Source of the DNA: Candidatus Aenigmatarchaeota archaeon
Lineage (GTDB): Archaea > Aenigmatarchaeota > Aenigmatarchaeia > Aenigmatarchaeales > Aenigmatarchaeaceae
Direction of reading: 5' to 3'
Assembly: GCA_043802485.1 (NCBI GenBank)
Contig: JAZDKZ010000005.1
Location: forward strand, 15,485 to 79,484
Length of the DNA stretch: 64,000 nucleotides
In this document: positions 15,712 through 22,345 of the stretch, in pieces
Numbering within the stretch: position 1 is the first letter of the stretch
Layout of the letters: each line of letters opens with the position of its first letter
The notes under the pieces: generated by a model
The model's input: the letters and a program-made list of their open reading frames with translations, nothing else
The model's database searches: none
Told to the model about the DNA's origin: nothing
Made by a program: the position numbers and the translations under genes

Positions 15712-15930
15712 ATGCCTAGAAAAAGGTCCATTATAGCAGCTGCCCCAATGGCAGAAATCCTGAAGAGCGCAGGGGCAGAAAGGGTCTCAGAACCGGCCGC
15801 CCGAGCTCTGGCTGAAATAGTCAAGGAATATACCTTCGAGCTGGCCAAGGATGCTGTCAAGTTCGCAAAGCACGCTGGTAGAAAGACTGTAAAAAGGGAA
15901 GATATAGAATTGGCCAGAAAAAGGGTTTAA
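15712..15930 (+). CDS. archaeal histone (HMf-like)
   Basis: AP...ILK.AGAERVS..A..AL......[18 protein letters not shown] histone fold. Confidence 0.95.
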
Positions 15931-15931
15931 A

Positions 15932-16264
15932 ATGGGATTTTTTCATAAAAAATGGTCCTGGATTATTCTATTTTTGCTACTAATTCTTTTTCTAGCTTGG
16001 TCACCTTGGCTAACAAAAGGCTTTGCAGAACAAAGAGTTGTAGATGATTTTAATGAAAAATGGTACGGTGTGATGGACGGTTGTGGATTCAATTGTGATG
16101 GTTGTGGTGTCTATAGGTCAAATAAGATATTTTTTGGATATGAAGTAATTATTATGTACAGTTGTGGTATGACTTTGTCCCCAATTCCTGAATGGCAAGA
16201 TAAAATGTTCGTGTCGTCTTTAGGAACTGTACACACTCAAAGTCATGAAACTAATTTGGACTGA
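15932..16264 (+). CDS. membrane-anchored hypothetical protein with CGFNCDGC motif
   Basis: N-terminal TM helix, Cys cluster; starts 1 nt after the histone stop. Confidence 0.65.
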   Translation: MGFFHKKWSWIILFLLLILFLAWSPWLTKGFAEQRVVDDFNEKWYGVMDGCGFNCDGCGVYRSNKIFFGYEVIIMYSCGMTLSPIPEWQDKMFVSSLGTVHTQSHETNLD

Positions 16265-16266
16265 AA

Positions 16267-16764
16267 TCAACCAATGTACCTTGTACAGGACCTGTCAAAG
16301 CCCTTTACAAGCCTGACCGGCTCTTCTATCTTCGGTGCGCCTTCTGGATAGACAAAATTAGGAAAGAACTTTCTAATGTCCTTTGATATCTCTGTTACGA
16401 CGTTCTTCTCGCCAAATATCTCCTTGCTTATCTCATACGCAAGCTCGCAGACATCATGCTCGTCGTAAATGCCAAGGCTGTGCAGATACTCGTGTAATAG
16501 AACGTGGAAGATGTACGGGTTCAGCAGTTTCGAATCAGTCTCCTGTATCCTTTTCAGCGGCGTCTCGTTCATCACTATCATGTTTGAGCCTGTGACATAG
16601 TAGGCTCCCACAAAGCCTTGCGGCTGGTTGCCCATTTCCACAAGGCCGAGCTCCAAACCTGCACGGCTCCTCCTGAGGCTCTTCCAGACTGCGTCTTTCA
16701 CAACCTCGAATATGTCAGGAATCGAAGTCGATTCGTTTATCTTGCAAATAAAATCTCTGTCCAT
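16267..16764 (-). CDS. minimal zincin-like metallopeptidase (HEXXH), C-terminus RYIG
   Basis: VGAYY strand, VLLHEYLHSLG..DE; ATG 16764 lies just downstream of the preceding gene's stop. Confidence 0.75.
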   Translation of the reverse strand: MDRDFICKINESTSIPDIFEVVKDAVWKSLRRSRAGLELGLVEMGNQPQGFVGAYYVTGSNMIVMNETPLKRIQETDSKLLNPYIFHVLLHEYLHSLGIYDEHDVCELAYEISKEIFGEKNVVTEISKDIRKFFPNFVYPEGAPKIEEPVRLVKGFDRSCTRYIG

Positions 16765-16768
16765 AAAT

Positions 16769-17107
16769 CTAACCAATGTACCTTGTGTTCTCAACGTCTT
16801 TGTATTTCTTCTTCACAGCTTCTGCCTTGGGAAGCGCGATCTTCCCGAACTTTTTCTCATAGTTCTTGACGTTCTTCTGCAGGATGTCCGCAAAGGACTT
16901 GGCAAACTGCGGGTCCAGTATCACCGTGTTGTGCTTTATGGTGAAGGTCTGCTGCATCTTGCCGTTTATGTTGTCCAATCTCGGAACTGTTTGGGAAAAG
17001 TCTATGATGAACTTGTTCGGATTGTGCAGCACCGAGACGTTGTCAGTGAAGAACGCGTCATTGTTGTGATCGATTTTTAGATTAACTCTTTCTTGTTTTT
17101 CAGCCAT
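16769..17107 (-). CDS. DUF3467-like protein, C-terminus RYIG
   Basis: F.D.VSV.H....FIIDF...VILDP..AK.F..IL..NV..YEKKFGKI; SD GGTGA before ATG 17107. Confidence 0.8.
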   Translation of the reverse strand: MAEKQERVNLKIDHNNDAFFTDNVSVLHNPNKFIIDFSQTVPRLDNINGKMQQTFTIKHNTVILDPQFAKSFADILQKNVKNYEKKFGKIALPKAEAVKKKYKDVENTRYIG

Positions 17108-17117
17108 TATTATCACC

Positions 17118-20100
17118 TTATCCTATGTACCTTGCCTGATCGTCCATCTCTGTCTTCTTCAGGTTCTCGACAGCCTTTTTGTATTTGCACGCCGGGTCCT
17201 CAGTTATTGAAGGCTTTATTCTTTTTAAAGCTTTTTCAAAGTGCTTTGAGGCAACTTCCTTTGCATTCTTGTTCTCCCTCAAAGCGAACAGGGCTGCTTC
17301 CCTGACCAGAGCCTCGATGTCAGCTCCTGAGAACTTGTCAGTCTCCTTGGCAATCTTACCTAGGTTGACGCCTTTCAGCGGCATGTTCTTTGTGTGTATC
17401 TTCAGTATGTCTTCCCTAGTCTTTTCATCCGGAGCAGGAACATATATCAGCCTGTCGAACCTGCCTGGCCTTAGCAATGCCGAGTCCAGTATGTCCGGTC
17501 GGTTGGTTGTCGCGATGACAGAGACTCCTTCCATGTCCTCTATCCCTGACATCTCTGTCAGTAGTTGTGAAACCACCTGCTCGGTCACATGCGAACCAGA
17601 TGACATGCCCCTCTTAGGAGCCAGCGAGTCTATCTCGTCAAACAAAATTATGGCCGGAGCGACCTGCTTGGCCCTTCTGAAGACGTCCCTGACATGCTGC
17701 TCGGATTCTCCGACCCACTTGGAGTTGTGCAATAACATTGGTATGTTACCGCCAATAAAAGAGTGATGCTCCGTTTCAACATCATACATAATTTGCGCTT
17801 TTGTTTTGGCTTTCTTTACAACAGTCGTCCATAAGAAATCACCCTTTGCAATCATTTGTAAAGTTTTGAAATCTTTGTTTTGTTTTATTTCATCGGAAAC
17901 TTGTTTTTCGAATATCCGCATAATCCTCTGCAATCTCAGCAACCCTATTTTTCTCCTTCCCGAAATCACATGCTCAAACGAACCATCAGGAATCTCTTTA
18001 TCATATGTTAATCCAGATAGTTGTTTGATTTTTTTCAAAAGTGAAGCAACAGGTGGTATTTCATATTGTCCATTATATTCGTCTCTAACCTCACTATTGT
18101 CGTCAGTACCTAAAACTAGACTCTTAAATTTATGAAGTTCAAGTGCTCCTGATATTGTCAACATATACATGTCGTCTTTTCTTTTCCAGAACTTTGTTTT
18201 AATGCCTAAAATTGTAGTCAGATATGCAATCCCCTCTGTAAGTGACTTGGATTTTGAGCTGTATTCTATCTTGGTTTGGGAAATTGAACCGTCGCCTCTA
18301 TACACTGCTTTGAGGAAAGAGGTTATTACATCTTTTGTTGATTTGGCGATTATTGAAGGGCATTTTATATTATGTGATTTCTTCTCGCCAAGGGGTTGGT
18401 CTAAAAGTTGTTCTAAATATTTAACCAGCGGCATGGAATAAACGATAATTCTATCTTTGTATACTGTAATTCTGCTTCCATCAACAAACTGCTTAAACAG
18501 CTTGATAATCTCATTTTGGTTTGCTTTATTGTAATTGCAGATTGTGACAGCTTCTTCAGAGACATTGCCTTCAGAGACAAACCATCCTAAGAATGCAGCT
18601 AGATTTTTTGTCAAGTATTTTGGCAGGCGTGTTGTTGTGTTTGTTGAAAATATCTTTACATAATATGCATCGTTGTCCTCCTTGACGAGTCTTAGGTGCT
18701 CGTACTTTGGCAGAGGAATCTGAACTACCTTATCAAGCGTATCCAATCTACAGGGATAAGAAACGTAATCCCCTTCCTTGATTTCAGACATCTTGATCCA
18801 TTGGACATATCCATTTCTATAAACAAGTAATGGTTGGTTTGCTGAACCTGTTAATTCTGAGTTGTTTTTCAATTCAATATGGTATGCATCTTTCACGAAA
18901 AGCTTGTGCATCGTCTTTACCTGCGTCTTGACAGCTTCTCCGTTATCACCAATTGCAAACGTATAAACAGGCTGAGTTAGTTTTCTGACCTCATAATTTT
19001 CATTTTTCTCAATAAGCTTTGAAATTGGTGTAATATTTTCATAAAACCTTTCAATTGGAATTGTACCACAATGATTTGTCAAAATCTTTGTGTCTGGAGA
19101 AACACACAACAACTCAGGTCCCTTTATTGAAATGAAGTTCACCCCTGCCTCGTTCGCTAGTGCTTTCACAACATAAGTCTTGCCGCATCCTGCCGGACCG
19201 TACAATAAAATTCCTCTGGGCGGCCTGATGCCCACTCGTTTGAAGCTCTCTGGATTTTCCAAAGGCCATATGACAGACTCCTTCAATGCCTCCTTGACAT
19301 CGTCCAGTCCTCCCACTTCATCCCATTTTACCTTCGGGATCTCGATGAGGACTTCCCTCATGGCAGACGGCTGGACTATTCTAAGCGCATAGTCGAAATC
19401 ATCTGCCTTTACCTTGAGCTTTTCTAAAACATCTTTCGGTATGGGCTCGTCCTCTTTCAGTGTGGAGATGGTCGGTATCACCCTTCTCAGGGCATGCATT
19501 GCAGCCTCCTTTGCAAGACCGGCAATGTCAGCACCTACGTAACCATACGTTACTTCGGCCAATTTGTCAAGGTCAACGCCCTTTTCCAAAGGCATGTAAC
19601 GGCTGTGTATCTGCAGTATCTCCTTCCTGCCCTTTTTATTCGGTACAGGAATCTCTATCTCCCTGTCAAACCTTCCTGACCTTCTCAGGGCAGGGTCCAA
19701 GGCGTTGACGCGGTTCGTTGCTGCTATGACGATGACTCTTCCTCTGGACTTTAGACCGTCCATCAGTGTCAGCAGTTGGGAAACAGTCCTTCTCTCAACC
19801 TCGCCTGTAACCTGCTCCCTGTTCGGAGCTATCGCGTCAATCTCATCAATGAAAATAATGCTTGGCGCTGACTTTTCAGCCTCGTCGAAAACCTTTCTCA
19901 GGTTCTGCTCTGTCTGGCCGTACCATTTGGAAAATATCTCAGGGCCTGCCAGTGAGATGAAATGAGCTCCCGACTCGTTGGCAACAGCCTTTGCTATCAG
20001 AGTTTTTCCAGTTCCGGGCGGGCCGTGCAGCAGAACTCCTTTCGGCGGCTCGATGCCCAACCTTTCAAACACCTCAGGCCTTCTCAGCGGCACCTCAATC

Positions 20101-20762
20101 ATCTCCCTTATCTTGGGAACTATCTCGCCCAAACCGCCAATGTCCTCATAAGTAACTGTAGGCATTTTCTCCTCTGATATCTCGACAGCCTCCGGCAGCA
20201 TCTCGACCTCGGTCATCTCAGTTATCTTCGTGATGCCGTCAGGACTGGTCTTGACTACTACAAGACGCATCTCTGTTCCCATGGGCAGGAAAACCTCCTG
20301 TATGTCTATGCCAAAGAACTGCGAAAAGACGTCGTCGCCTCTAGATTTTGTCTTGAACACAGGAGACGTGGTTATGATGTCACCCTTTGCCATGGGTCGC
20401 ATGAAAAGATTCTGCTTAATCAAATTAGGCGAGATGTGCAGCATGATTCCCTGCTGCGCAGGAGCCAATGTAACCTTCTTGGCCTCCTTTGCTTCAGCCT
20501 TCCTGACAGTGACAAACTCGCCTATGGTAGCGTTACAGTTCTTCCTTACCAGTCCATCCACTCTTAATATGTTAAGCCCTATGTCAGCAGGATAGCTTCT
20601 TATCGCGACGACTCCTGTCTTTCTCTTGCCCTCTATCTCGAGAATTTCGCCTTCATTTACTCCCAGCTTCTTCATTATTTTCGAATCAATCCTGGCAATG
20701 CCCCTTCCGAAATCCTCCCTGCCTGTAAGCTCCCCAACTTTTAGTTTTATATCATCAGCCAT
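17118..20762 (-). CDS. cdc48: CDC48/VAT AAA+ ATPase (753 aa after splicing) containing an intein; C-terminus RYIG
   Basis: N-domain; D1 [16 protein letters not shown]2 [17 protein letters not shown] motifs ALRRSGRFD and ALLRPGRFD. Confidence 0.95.
17724..19106 (-). mobile_element. 461-aa intein with LAGLIDADG homing endonuclease in the CDC48 D2 domain
   Basis: Interrupts [15 protein letters not shown]; begins with Cys (CVSPDT), ends MYDVET.HHSFIG....LHN followed by Ser; endonuclease blocks [12 protein letters not shown] and [11 protein letters not shown]. Confidence 0.95.
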
Positions 20763-20772
20763 AAAATCACCC

Positions 20773-21114
20773 TTATTGTTTTAACTCCTCTTCCTCCTTT
20801 TTATCTAGCAGAACGGGAAATGTCTTCAGCTCTACCTTGTCATCCCATTCGTCGAAAAAGCTCATCATCCTCTTCATGTGCTCCATGGCAACTATGAAGA
20901 CCGAATCAGCAACTTTAATATGAGGAATTTCCTCTAATAAACCTTCCTTCTGATAAACATACCTCTTGGAATGCCTGAAAACGACCTGCCTCCTGCCGTG
21001 CAGCTGCCAGTAAAATCGGTTCCTTTCCGATGCAGAGTCAAACTTTTCCTTGACCGTGTCAAAGCTTATCAGGACAGCCGTCTTGCCATCTGTCTTCTTT
21101 ATCTCAATCCTCAT
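20773..21114 (-). CDS. Cas2/VapD-like ferredoxin-fold protein, first gene of the cdc48 operon
   Basis: LISFD resembles Cas2 'lv.YD'/VapD 'IAFD'; VADSVFIV resembles Cas2 'vQ.SVF'. Confidence 0.55.
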
Positions 21115-21139
21115 AGTTAGTATATATGTATATCTAAAA

Positions 21140-21147
21140 TATATAAA
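21140..21147 (-). promoter_or_regulatory. TATA box candidate for the cdc48 operon
   Basis: TTTATATA on the minus strand about 25 nt upstream of ATG 21114. Confidence 0.5.
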
Positions 21148-21184
21148 GATAACTGTTTAAATTTTTTCATCTTCCGTTATTAGT

Positions 21185-21634
21185 ATGAAAAAATATGGGG
21201 CGTCTTATAGCACACTGCCAAAAAACGATAGAAACAGGCTGGAACTGATAGACGCTGCCGAATATCTAAAGGGCCTTTTTGACGGCATTGAGAGAAAGGA
21301 GGTCCTATGGGTAGATGCAAGTGATAAAGATTTCTGTAGATATTTGAAGGGGAATTCGCAAGGCGAGAAGGTTAGGATAATTGGCGGCTACAAATACGGC
21401 TCTGGACAGAACAAAATGATTATGAAGAGTCTTGTCGTGTTAGCAGAGAACAACGGCCTTCGAAAAGCAATGCATGGGGAAGATTTCAAATTTATGGTTT
21501 CAGCAAACGAGTCATTTGACAGAAGTAATGTTAACTTTTGGCTTAAAGGCAAAAGCGCTAAAAAAATACTTGAAATAAACAATATGACCAATAAAGTAAA
21601 GCTGAGATATCCTATAACAGGGGTTCTGAAGTAG
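21185..21634 (+). CDS. hypothetical protein
   Basis: 149-aa ATG-initiated ORF filling the gap; no recognised motif. Confidence 0.6.
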   Translation: MKKYGASYSTLPKNDRNRLELIDAAEYLKGLFDGIERKEVLWVDASDKDFCRYLKGNSQGEKVRIIGGYKYGSGQNKMIMKSLVVLAENNGLRKAMHGEDFKFMVSANESFDRSNVNFWLKGKSAKKILEINNMTNKVKLRYPITGVLK

Positions 21635-21667
21635 TAATAAATTTTTAACATTGCAATATTGATTAAT

Positions 21668-22345
21668 ATGAAAAACATTTCTTTAGAGATCAAAAGGGGG
21701 AACATAGCGTACCAGAATGTGGATTCGTCTATCAATTCTTCTAACGGTTATTGTATACACGGCTCTGGAACCGCAAAACAATTTAGAGAGGTATGTGGTT
21801 ATCTGCCCGTAGGTGATACGTCTTACCAGAGCTTGGTCGACAAGGCAAAACATCCCTTGGATAAAGTTTTAGCTTATGTCAACAATGTAAGGCCAAGACC
21901 GTCCGTATTTCAGAAAGAATGCCTTGAACACATAATAGATGTTAGAGATTCCAAGCCTCTGGAATTAGGTGATGCACTTGTCACGTCCAGCGGAGACCTG
22001 GCAAAAGTACCGAAAAAGGCAAAATATATTATCAACGCAATAGGTATGGATTATAGCTGGGAAAAAGAACCGCCTGCTGTAATCAAGGCAACACACAATT
22101 CTGTCAGGGACTCGCTGATAAAGTGTTTTGACATAGCAAACAGAAAAAAGTGCAAAAGCGTTGCAATGCCCATAATGTGCACGTCGAAAGGCGGGATGAG
22201 CCTAGAAGAAAGCCTTTACGCTTCAAATGAAGCTTTGCAAGCACTGGATATGACAACCAGCTATGTCACAAAGGTTGTAATAGTTCTCCACAGCAAGGAG
22301 CTGTTAAAGGAAGAGAAAGTAATCAGGGATTTTTTCAAGTTATAG
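21668..22345 (+). CDS. macrodomain protein (divergent)
   Basis: GNIA..VD..INSSN....HGSG.A, LGDALVT.SGDL, AKYIINA, SVAMP.MCT..GG correspond to the macro motifs GDI, NAAN, GGG, P.igTG. Confidence 0.8.
   Translation: MKNISLEIKRGNIAYQNVDSSINSSNGYCIHGSGTAKQFREVCGYLPVGDTSYQSLVDKAKHPLDKVLAYVNNVRPRPSVFQKECLEHIIDVRDSKPLELGDALVTSSGDLAKVPKKAKYIINAIGMDYSWEKEPPAVIKATHNSVRDSLIKCFDIANRKKCKSVAMPIMCTSKGGMSLEESLYASNEALQALDMTTSYVTKVVIVLHSKELLKEEKVIRDFFKL

Follow-up and report, generated by a model that had tools for sequence, protein, structure and literature searches.

In the 64,000-nucleotide stretch analysed here (the window), from a Candidatus Aenigmatarchaeota genome of 769 kb that is 89% complete, the unfoldase Cdc48 and the two proteins encoded directly downstream of it end in the same four residues, RYIG. 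Close homologs that have a name mostly bear the label Aenigmatarchaeota. The three genes belong to a run of four minus-strand open reading frames (ORFs) that an earlier note on this DNA had described as tightly packed, and the coordinates bear this out, with spacers of 10, 10 and 4 nucleotides (nt). The features of the locus are as follows, with protein lengths in amino acids (aa).

21115..21190, minus strand: AT-rich stretch with TATA-like TTTATATA, upstream of the first gene of the run
20773..21114, minus strand: conserved 113-aa protein, family unassigned by profile; near-constant upstream neighbour of cdc48, without a YIG tail
17118..20762, minus strand: Cdc48/VAT double-AAA unfoldase, 1214 aa with intein, ending DQARYIG (TIGR01243, CDC48_N, CDC48_2, AAA)
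17724..19106, minus strand: LAGLIDADG intein within the second AAA domain of Cdc48 (Pfam Intein_splicing and LAGLIDADG_3)
17118..17132, minus strand: Cdc48 tail R-Y-I-G-stop, read from the sequence
16769..17107, minus strand: DUF3467 protein, 112 aa from ATG, ending ENTRYIG (PF11950)
16769..16783, minus strand: DUF3467 tail R-Y-I-G-stop, read from the sequence
16267..16764, minus strand: predicted minigluzincin-like zinc metallopeptidase (the zincin), 165 aa from ATG, ending SCTRYIG (fold and HExxH)
16267..16281, minus strand: zincin tail R-Y-I-G-stop, read from the sequence

The AT-rich stretch is a candidate archaeal promoter of the four-gene run, which may be co-transcribed. GGTGA precedes both the cdc48 and the DUF3467 gene. 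We place the zincin start at the ATG at 16764, in agreement with homologs of 165 aa, and not at the TTG at 16794.

Rarity and conservation of the tail

The three ends are exactly those given in the earlier note. In the window's genome, RYIG terminates just these 3 of 2771 ORFs of at least 60 aa, and YIG terminates 4; the fourth is a PAC2 protein encoded on another contig (C6), near the gene for eIF2-alpha, which ends ELKYIG. Among 757 genes of at least 100 aa, 0.13-0.15 YIG ends are expected, which gives a probability of about 1-2e-5 for four or more, an estimate made for a motif that was picked after being seen. By the proteome-wide count that the earlier note had proposed, YIG ends are rare in this genome, and the 4 observed exceed the roughly 0.14 expected.

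Our survey of the phylum covered 121 genomes, with Cdc48 found in 117, PAC2 in 118, DUF3467 in 44 and the zincin in 25. Tails were read at 92 Cdc48 loci from 90 genomes (91 of them complete), for 43 of 44 DUF3467 matches, for all 25 zincins and for PAC2 in 65 of 118 genomes. Tyr stands at position -3 in 221 of the 224 tails (Cdc48 88/91, DUF3467 43/43, zincin 25/25, PAC2 65/65), a conservation across orthologous loci that the earlier note had anticipated. All three exceptions belong to Cdc48: two come from second paralogs, and the other is a tail ending SYG. Cdc48 tails are also the loosest of the four families (YIG 35, YVG 26, YTG 9, YLG 6, and others). Arg at -4 is not conserved and lies outside the signal. 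As read from these tails, then, the conserved code is Y-[IVLFMT]-small (hereafter Y-hydrophobic-small), not RYIG. It sits at the free C-terminus, with the stop codon immediately after it, and is conserved beyond a variable linker. That the tail is a variant, and not the canonical HbYX motif (hydrophobic residue, Tyr, any residue), had also been noted before: all three window tails have Tyr at -3 and Ile at -2, and the published HbYX pattern matches 0/91 Cdc48, 0/43 DUF3467, 3/25 zincin and 0/65 PAC2 tails in the phylum.

This conservation is at the level of the protein. The 12 nt that encode YIG and the stop take 20 distinct forms in 28 Cdc48 loci, 23 in 30 DUF3467 loci, 13 in 18 zincin loci and 21 in 30 PAC2 loci, and among them either Tyr codon, each of the three Ile codons, three or four of the Gly codons and every stop codon occur; such free variation of codons and stops argues for a protein-level signal rather than a DNA or RNA motif. 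The DUF3467 and zincin gene ends do share 16 identical nt in the window, as might be expected if the likeness were a nucleic-acid feature (a repeat, an overlapping ribosome-binding site or a local duplication) or chance. Such an origin is largely refuted by the codon analysis, however, and it also conflicts with the chance estimate of about 1e-5 and with the persistence of the tail on DUF3467 and the zincin where their genes are unlinked from the cdc48 run; we regard it as extremely improbable.

Gly is frequent as the last residue in all four families (Cdc48 78/91, DUF3467 42/43, zincin 22/25, PAC2 64/65), which would suit a ubiquitin-like modifier whose terminal Gly is activated and conjugated. 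There is, however, no di-Gly end, non-Gly ends are common in other archaea, and no ThiF/E1 protein exceeds the cut-off in the window's genome (89% complete), so that this explanation seems to us highly improbable. In the same genome, at the same completeness, PF04322, which we take to be the PF0014 family, is likewise not over its cut-off.

YIG ends were also seen on very small proteins. Two related 67-aa micro-proteins (L393:1309-1512, plus strand, genome G105; L493:1309-1512, plus strand, genome G057) share a conserved basic/aromatic N-terminal part followed by a divergent linker, belong to no Pfam family and are possibly a fifth tail-bearing family. A 50-aa basic ORF, seen once (L384:1501-1653, minus strand, genome G045), ends ELTYIG, like PbaB tails.

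Proteins that carry the tail

The fourth YIG protein links the tail to a known proteasome partner. It scores 222 bits against TIGR00162 (cut-off 200), and its best match among PDB chains is 3vr0 (E 7e-58, 283 aa), against E 8e-20 for PbaA (3wz2). Going by its length of 280 aa, we take 3vr0 to be P. furiosus PbaB; PbaA and PbaB were reportedly defined by Kusmierczyk et al. in 2011. On these matches the protein is a PbaB-type PAC2, an ortholog of a proven 20S activator. P. furiosus PbaB is reported to use its C-terminal tripeptide, GYL, both to bind and to activate the 20S proteasome (Kumoi et al. 2013, PMC3605417). In 30 genomes of another phylum (that of genome G121, presumably Halobacteriota), PbaB-type proteins end in YIG (15), YIR (7), YFR (3), YIV (3) or YYV (2); in the phylum of genome G124 they often end in YIS, YIG or YVS, and several paralogs end otherwise. 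The PbaA-type paralogs have canonical ends, LMYG or AVYL. In the archaea sampled, Y-hydrophobic-small is thus the usual tail of PbaB. Our literature search, which took in PMC11475706, PMC9540759, PMC2948915, PMC6514570 and bioRxiv 10.64898/2026.05.13.725050, found no experimental test of the YIG, YIS or YIR form of the PbaB tail and no description of a YIG tail on Cdc48, PbaB, DUF3467 or the zincin; earlier alignments of PbaA and PbaB could already show the PbaB tail.

Position -5 differs among the carriers. Leu at this position, without which human 20S reportedly does not open in the Rpt5 manner (bioRxiv 10.64898/2026.04.13.718244), is found in the PbaB tail of the window's genome, in 40/65 PbaB tails of the phylum and in 27/30 of the Halobacteriota-like sample. 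It is present in just 7/91 Cdc48 tails of the phylum, and the Cdc48, DUF3467 protein and zincin of the window have Ala, Thr and Thr instead.

Cdc48 scores 995 bits against TIGR01243 (cut-off 803) and has an N domain and two AAA modules with Walker A and B motifs. The earlier note makes no mention of its 461-aa intein (residues 553-1013, C553...HN1013, followed by Ser), whose removal leaves a mature chain of 753 aa; many Cdc48 frames in the phylum span 1095-1885 aa, which suggests that inteins are frequent and multiple in this protein. Cdc48 is the only Cdc48/PAN-type ATPase in the window's genome, and none of the 121 phylum genomes has a PAN over the TIGR01242 cut-off, with four archaeal controls positive. 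The absence of PAN leaves Cdc48 as the only candidate ATP-dependent cap. PAN N-domain-only proteins were considered from 22 matches to PF16450 (the PAN OB-domain) and rejected, the matches being frames of 102-134 aa of which 3/3 scanned are aIF-1A. PAN-less archaea are reported to encode Cdc48 with canonical HbYX (Forouzan et al. 2012, PMC3493965). Non-HbYX Cdc48 tails occur outside the phylum too: AYIS and TMIG terminate Cdc48 paralogs in a Caldarchaeales genome, and TMVA terminates a Bathyarchaeota Cdc48 (loci L189, L194 and L190). Genome G071 encodes a 373-aa single-AAA ATPase with a weak Vps4_C match (L175:179-1300, minus strand), possibly the third AAA match of family f13.

The DUF3467 protein, called DUF3467-like in the earlier note, exceeds the PF11950 gathering cut-off (48 bits against 25). 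Its model (predicted local distance difference test score, pLDDT, 77.5) shows a beta-meander and a long helix over residues 9-87, then about 25 low-confidence residues and RYIG, and the linker before the tail varies between 15 and 38 residues in the 139 tailed homologs measured. The closest fold likeness, which is weak, is to COMM/PUR/PC4-like proteins (Z 4.5, root-mean-square deviation (rmsd) 2.3, 58 residues aligned); no fold match reaches Z 5 and no Foldseek match reaches E 0.001. YIG ends 59/61 homologs and 41/43 phylum loci, and among metagenome loci (74, with 68 complete tails) YFG ends 33, a share enriched because the query was built from such sequences. The metagenome loci, which we infer to belong to other DPANN archaea, have dnaK, grpE or dnaJ within 3 kb of DUF3467 in 63/79 cases and cdc48 in 0/79; a 134-aa helix-turn-helix regulator often accompanies DUF3467 in these clusters (37/79 loci; L298-L371, L377). 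The tail is missing from the six remotest homologs (L372-L377), which are probably bacterial; one of them (L377) lies between dnaK and dnaJ. This context, shared by a tail-less homolog, ties DUF3467 to protein quality control independently of the tail. The window's genome (89% complete) has no dnaK match. Two apparent fusions were set aside as probable artefacts: P0059 (DUF3467 joined to PDZ) is a single short-contig record, probably an assembly or frameshift error, and P0124 (283 aa, DUF3467 running into the zincin) comes from one 1.7-kb contig and is probably a frameshift or assembly error too.

The earlier label of HEXXH metallopeptidase agrees with both the motif and the predicted fold. 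H91-E92-x-x-H95 is invariant in the zincin motif and E102, presumably the third zinc ligand, nearly so, with HExxH-x6-E in 54/57 loci. The model (pLDDT 91.8, with low confidence confined to residues 163-165) matches proabylysin (Z 9.3, rmsd 2.6, 100 residues aligned) and selecase (Z 8.8, rmsd 3.1, 101 aligned), and at lower scores YbeY nucleases (Z 8.1), SPRTN (6mdx, Z 7.6) and Wss1 (Z 5.6); Foldseek likewise returns the minimal zincin fold (E 0.05, probability 0.98). Pfam Zincin_1 scores 19 bits, under its cut-off of 22.4, and matches 22/59 family members weakly, and no solved chain matches the sequence significantly. YIG ends 118 of the 120 homologs listed among 311 found. In other archaea, Tyr is at -3 in 24/24 zincin loci, of which 17 end YF[A/S/G], mostly in one lineage. 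Three homologs (L015, L228, L230) have lost the first His of HExxH and keep the Tyr-3 tail, which implies that catalysis may not be the whole role of this predicted peptidase.

The first gene of the run had been labelled Cas2/VapD-like, a label that finds no profile support: Cas2 and VapD are absent from the Pfam matches of 27 family members, the protein itself has no Pfam, NCBIfam or PDB profile match over cut-off, and PDB profiles give no hit at E 10. Its relatives fall only in unnamed archaeal protein clusters (Atlas). Searches with this single protein as query found the family in 72/121 phylum genomes, and in 68 of the 71 with a listed cdc48 row its gene lies upstream of cdc48, on the same strand and within 6 kb. 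No other gene accompanies cdc48 as faithfully, and its product is a candidate Cdc48 regulator or cofactor.

The other linkages are looser. The cdc48-DUF3467-zincin run occurs in 5/121 phylum genomes, all in the window's family; DUF3467 adjoins cdc48 in 10/30 loci, and the zincin gene lies directly downstream of cdc48 at 6 more loci, in other families, and upstream of it at one. The proteostasis module proposed in the earlier note is partly supported: Cdc48 is the only candidate proteasomal unfoldase and all three families conserve their tails, but as a gene run it was found in one family only. Around the run in the window, the plus-strand genes at 15712-15930, 21659-22345, 15932-16264 and 21185-21634 comprise an archaeal histone, a Macro-domain protein and two ORFs without a Pfam match. 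Loci L004, L006, L040 and L050 likewise have a histone-like gene close to the run.

Probable docking on the 20S proteasome

We think it likely that Y-hydrophobic-small tails dock in the pockets of the 20S alpha ring, where Cdc48 and PbaB would act as caps and two competitors, DUF3467 and the zincin, as adaptor and peptidase. The tail would insert between alpha subunits in the normal register, its terminal carboxylate pairing with K66. Tyr at -3 would fill the Hb pocket (L21/V24) and could hydrogen-bond E25 as in YΦ tails of the Rpt5/PA200 type, and Ile at -2 would occupy the site given to Tyr in canonical HbYX. In a lineage without PAN, Cdc48 would serve as the ATP-dependent cap and PbaB as the ATP-independent one. 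DUF3467, which is small, probably oligomeric, flexible in its tail and heat-shock-linked, would compete for the alpha pockets and is probably an adaptor that delivers substrates or regulates the gate; the zincin would be a further competitor there, probably a peptidase for pre-cutting or clearing. We regard both as candidate 20S partners. PbaB tails, often with Leu at -5, may open the gate, and the tails of the other three families, mostly without it, may only dock. The YF-X, YΦ-like variants found in both families of unassigned function indicate that these tails grade into known activator sequences.

The alpha subunits of the phylum keep much of such a pocket. We compared 31 phylum alphas with 31 outgroup alphas, numbered by alignment to T. 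acidophilum (window's genome, L002:1435-2130, minus strand; further alphas, L268-L297 and L562-L566). In the window's genome the alpha gene lies at C1:101840-102535, and its K62, V20 and E21 correspond to T. acidophilum K66, V24 and E25. Every one of the 31 phylum alphas keeps P17, G19, V24, E25, K66 and G80. T13 has become Val in 26/31; V82 is kept in 3/31, against 31/31 in the outgroup; and L81 is kept in 13/31 (29 in the outgroup), with Phe in 10, the window's genome included. All 31 lack one residue in the first half of the back-loop, and 10/26 alphas, that of the window's genome among them, have a compensating insertion before K66. When 89 outgroup-conserved columns were ranked by erosion in 26 alphas, five of the top six were back-loop, T13 and V82 positions, with L81 fifteenth. 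In the model proteasome of T. acidophilum, a one-residue back-loop deletion, T13I and L81Y are each reported to alter gating (PMC10349882). These changes, from one lineage and perhaps partly general divergence, fit a pocket that anchors the -3 Tyr and the carboxylate but no longer needs Tyr at -2.

Six genomes whose alpha carries K32E all have a Cdc48 ending YT[GQ]; they form one clade in one tree (support 85/81) and are split in an IQ-TREE run with a weakly supported backbone. In another genome, G097 (L544, L535, L163, L566), Cdc48, DUF3467 and PAC2 end YTS, YID and YIE, all without terminal Gly and including the only non-Gly DUF3467 and PAC2 tails among those read in the phylum. Its alpha carries K at position 35 and L at position 33; no other family shows a pocket as altered as that of its own (S35K/R, K33L).

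Several observations weigh against docking, or against docking of the kind proposed. A penultimate Tyr is reported as key to archaeal gate opening (PMC10349882) and is absent here, so that YIG tails may dock without opening the gate; the aliphatic residue at -2 also lies outside the YΦ preference. P. furiosus PbaA has an HbYX end and yet is reported not to bind mature 20S (PMC3605417, PMC6992696), which means that a tail alone is no proof of binding. The free tail of the zincin looks short, the low-confidence residues of its model being 163-165 alone. Y-I-X ends of PbaB are also found alongside canonical pockets, and the pocket changes may therefore be general DPANN divergence; likewise, the K32E group, taken as a single clade, makes its match of tail and pocket no independent evidence, and each alpha change that goes with an odd tail comes down to a single lineage (family f10, for instance, forms one clade). 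Finally, the co-variation of tails within genomes that the earlier note had proposed as a test did not emerge: across six protein pairs, the last three residues co-vary no more than in shuffles (Cdc48-DUF3467 12 against 10.7, Cdc48-PAC2 19 against 19.3). The single excess, at residue -4 between Cdc48 and DUF3467 (13 against 6.2; reached in 3/2000 shuffles), is due to relatedness, Arg being found in the window's order.

One alternative is that the tails share a receptor that is not 20S (Cdc48, PbaB, the upstream 113-aa protein or another archaeal protein, for instance) and mark a proteostasis hub independent of the alpha pockets. The failure of the tails to fit canonical HbYX would agree with this, as would the tight linkage of the 113-aa protein to cdc48 (68/71), and PAN-bearing archaea keep PbaA/PAN-type LMYG and SMFA ends beside PbaB-type YIG, which could mean two receptors. 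Such a receptor would, however, have to be near-universal in archaea, like PbaB-YIG, whereas the 113-aa protein is found in 72/121 genomes with a single-protein query; no PDZ_2 domain exceeds the cut-off in the window's genome (89% complete); and tail variants overlap proven 20S-binding sequences (YF-X, YY-X, GYL). We consider a shared receptor of this sort unlikely. Slightly less probable still is a latent or degradation signal, in which Gly is trimmed, possibly by the zincin, to expose an HbYX-like x-Y-I end, or in which the tail is a C-terminal degron. Removing Gly would make Tyr penultimate, as in the GYL of P. furiosus PbaB, and the same run encodes a predicted peptidase. Yet the position ahead of Tyr holds polar, variable residues (R, S, D, G, K), which an Hb site does not; Tyr stays at -3 while the final residue can be R, V, A, S, Q, E or D; and the zincin was found in 25/121 genomes whereas the tails are phylum-wide.

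With docking on 20S preferred, the shared tail code for a 20S partner suggested in the earlier note survives in altered form. The tail is conserved and rare, its other carrier is a PbaB ortholog and its variants grade into YΦ and HbYX; RYIG was too narrow a definition, and the code is not specific to the operon. If tails of this kind do dock, the published rule of a canonical HbYX Cdc48 in PAN-less archaea fails for an entire phylum, and the commonest archaeal PbaB tail is a variant resembling the human YΦ activation motif. DUF3467 and an archaeal zincin family without a name would also gain a testable function as 20S partners, three residues would give a key to further proteasome partners missed by HbYX-pattern databases, and the natural alpha changes at gating-mutant positions would provide a ready-made test of tail-pocket fit. 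A wider proposal is possible but clearly more doubtful than docking itself: Y-hydrophobic-small, with Leu at -5 in PbaB, would be a second, ancient archaeal tail class parallel to YΦ, and Aenigmatarchaeota, having lost PAN and all canonical HbYX caps, would rely solely on it to serve a 20S re-tuned by an altered back-loop, T13V and L81F/V82L. DUF3467 would then be an ATP-independent cap or adaptor linking DnaK to 20S, the zincin a proteasome-docked, Wss1-like peptidase, and the tail a search key for partners such as the 50- and 67-aa micro-proteins.

Comparison with known systems

Among known proteins, the zincin shares the minimal HExxH zincin fold of the minigluzincins (proabylysin, selecase/projannalysin) and differs from them by an extra C-terminal strand and the tail. 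Its likeness to Wss1 and SPRTN is one of fold; Wss1 is said to partner with Cdc48 (PMC4559962). Within DUF3467 (PF11950), the archaeal members read carry the Y-hydrophobic-small tail, beside cdc48 or dnaK, and the most distant members are without it.

The tail itself has three points of comparison. With the HbYX tails of PAN, Cdc48/VAT and AMA (PMC3493965) it shares a free C-terminal tripeptide with Tyr, on a ring-shaped Cdc48, and the pocket residues K66, G19, P17 and G80 are conserved likewise, with Cdc48 as the probable cap in a PAN-less lineage. In the window tails, however, Tyr stands at -3 and position -2 is aliphatic, whereas the canonical motif is described as needing a penultimate Tyr or Phe and a small or hydrophobic third-last residue (PMC3493965). 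With PbaB the comparison is between orthologs: the P. furiosus protein tested by Kumoi et al. (PMC3605417) ends GYL, whereas most of the orthologs we read end YIG, YIS or YIR.

The YΦ motif of Rpt5 and PA200/Blm10, which acts on human 20S, is described as requiring Tyr at -3, hydrogen-bonded to E25, with Tyr or Phe at -2 (bioRxiv 2021.04.28.441858), and an aromatic group in the Hb pocket is reported to open the T. acidophilum gate (PMC10349882). The tails studied here share with it Tyr at -3, a small last residue and the conserved E25 and R20; the YF-X variants of DUF3467 and the zincin match it exactly, and most PbaB tails share Leu at -5. Ring stacking needs Tyr or Phe at -2, however, where the window tails have Ile and relatives have an aromatic residue in 33/68 DUF3467, 17/24 zincin and 5/30 PbaB tails, and YΦ was defined on a eukaryotic heteromeric ring. 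By this comparison, the tail would work like an HbYX or YΦ tail yet belongs to neither motif as defined.

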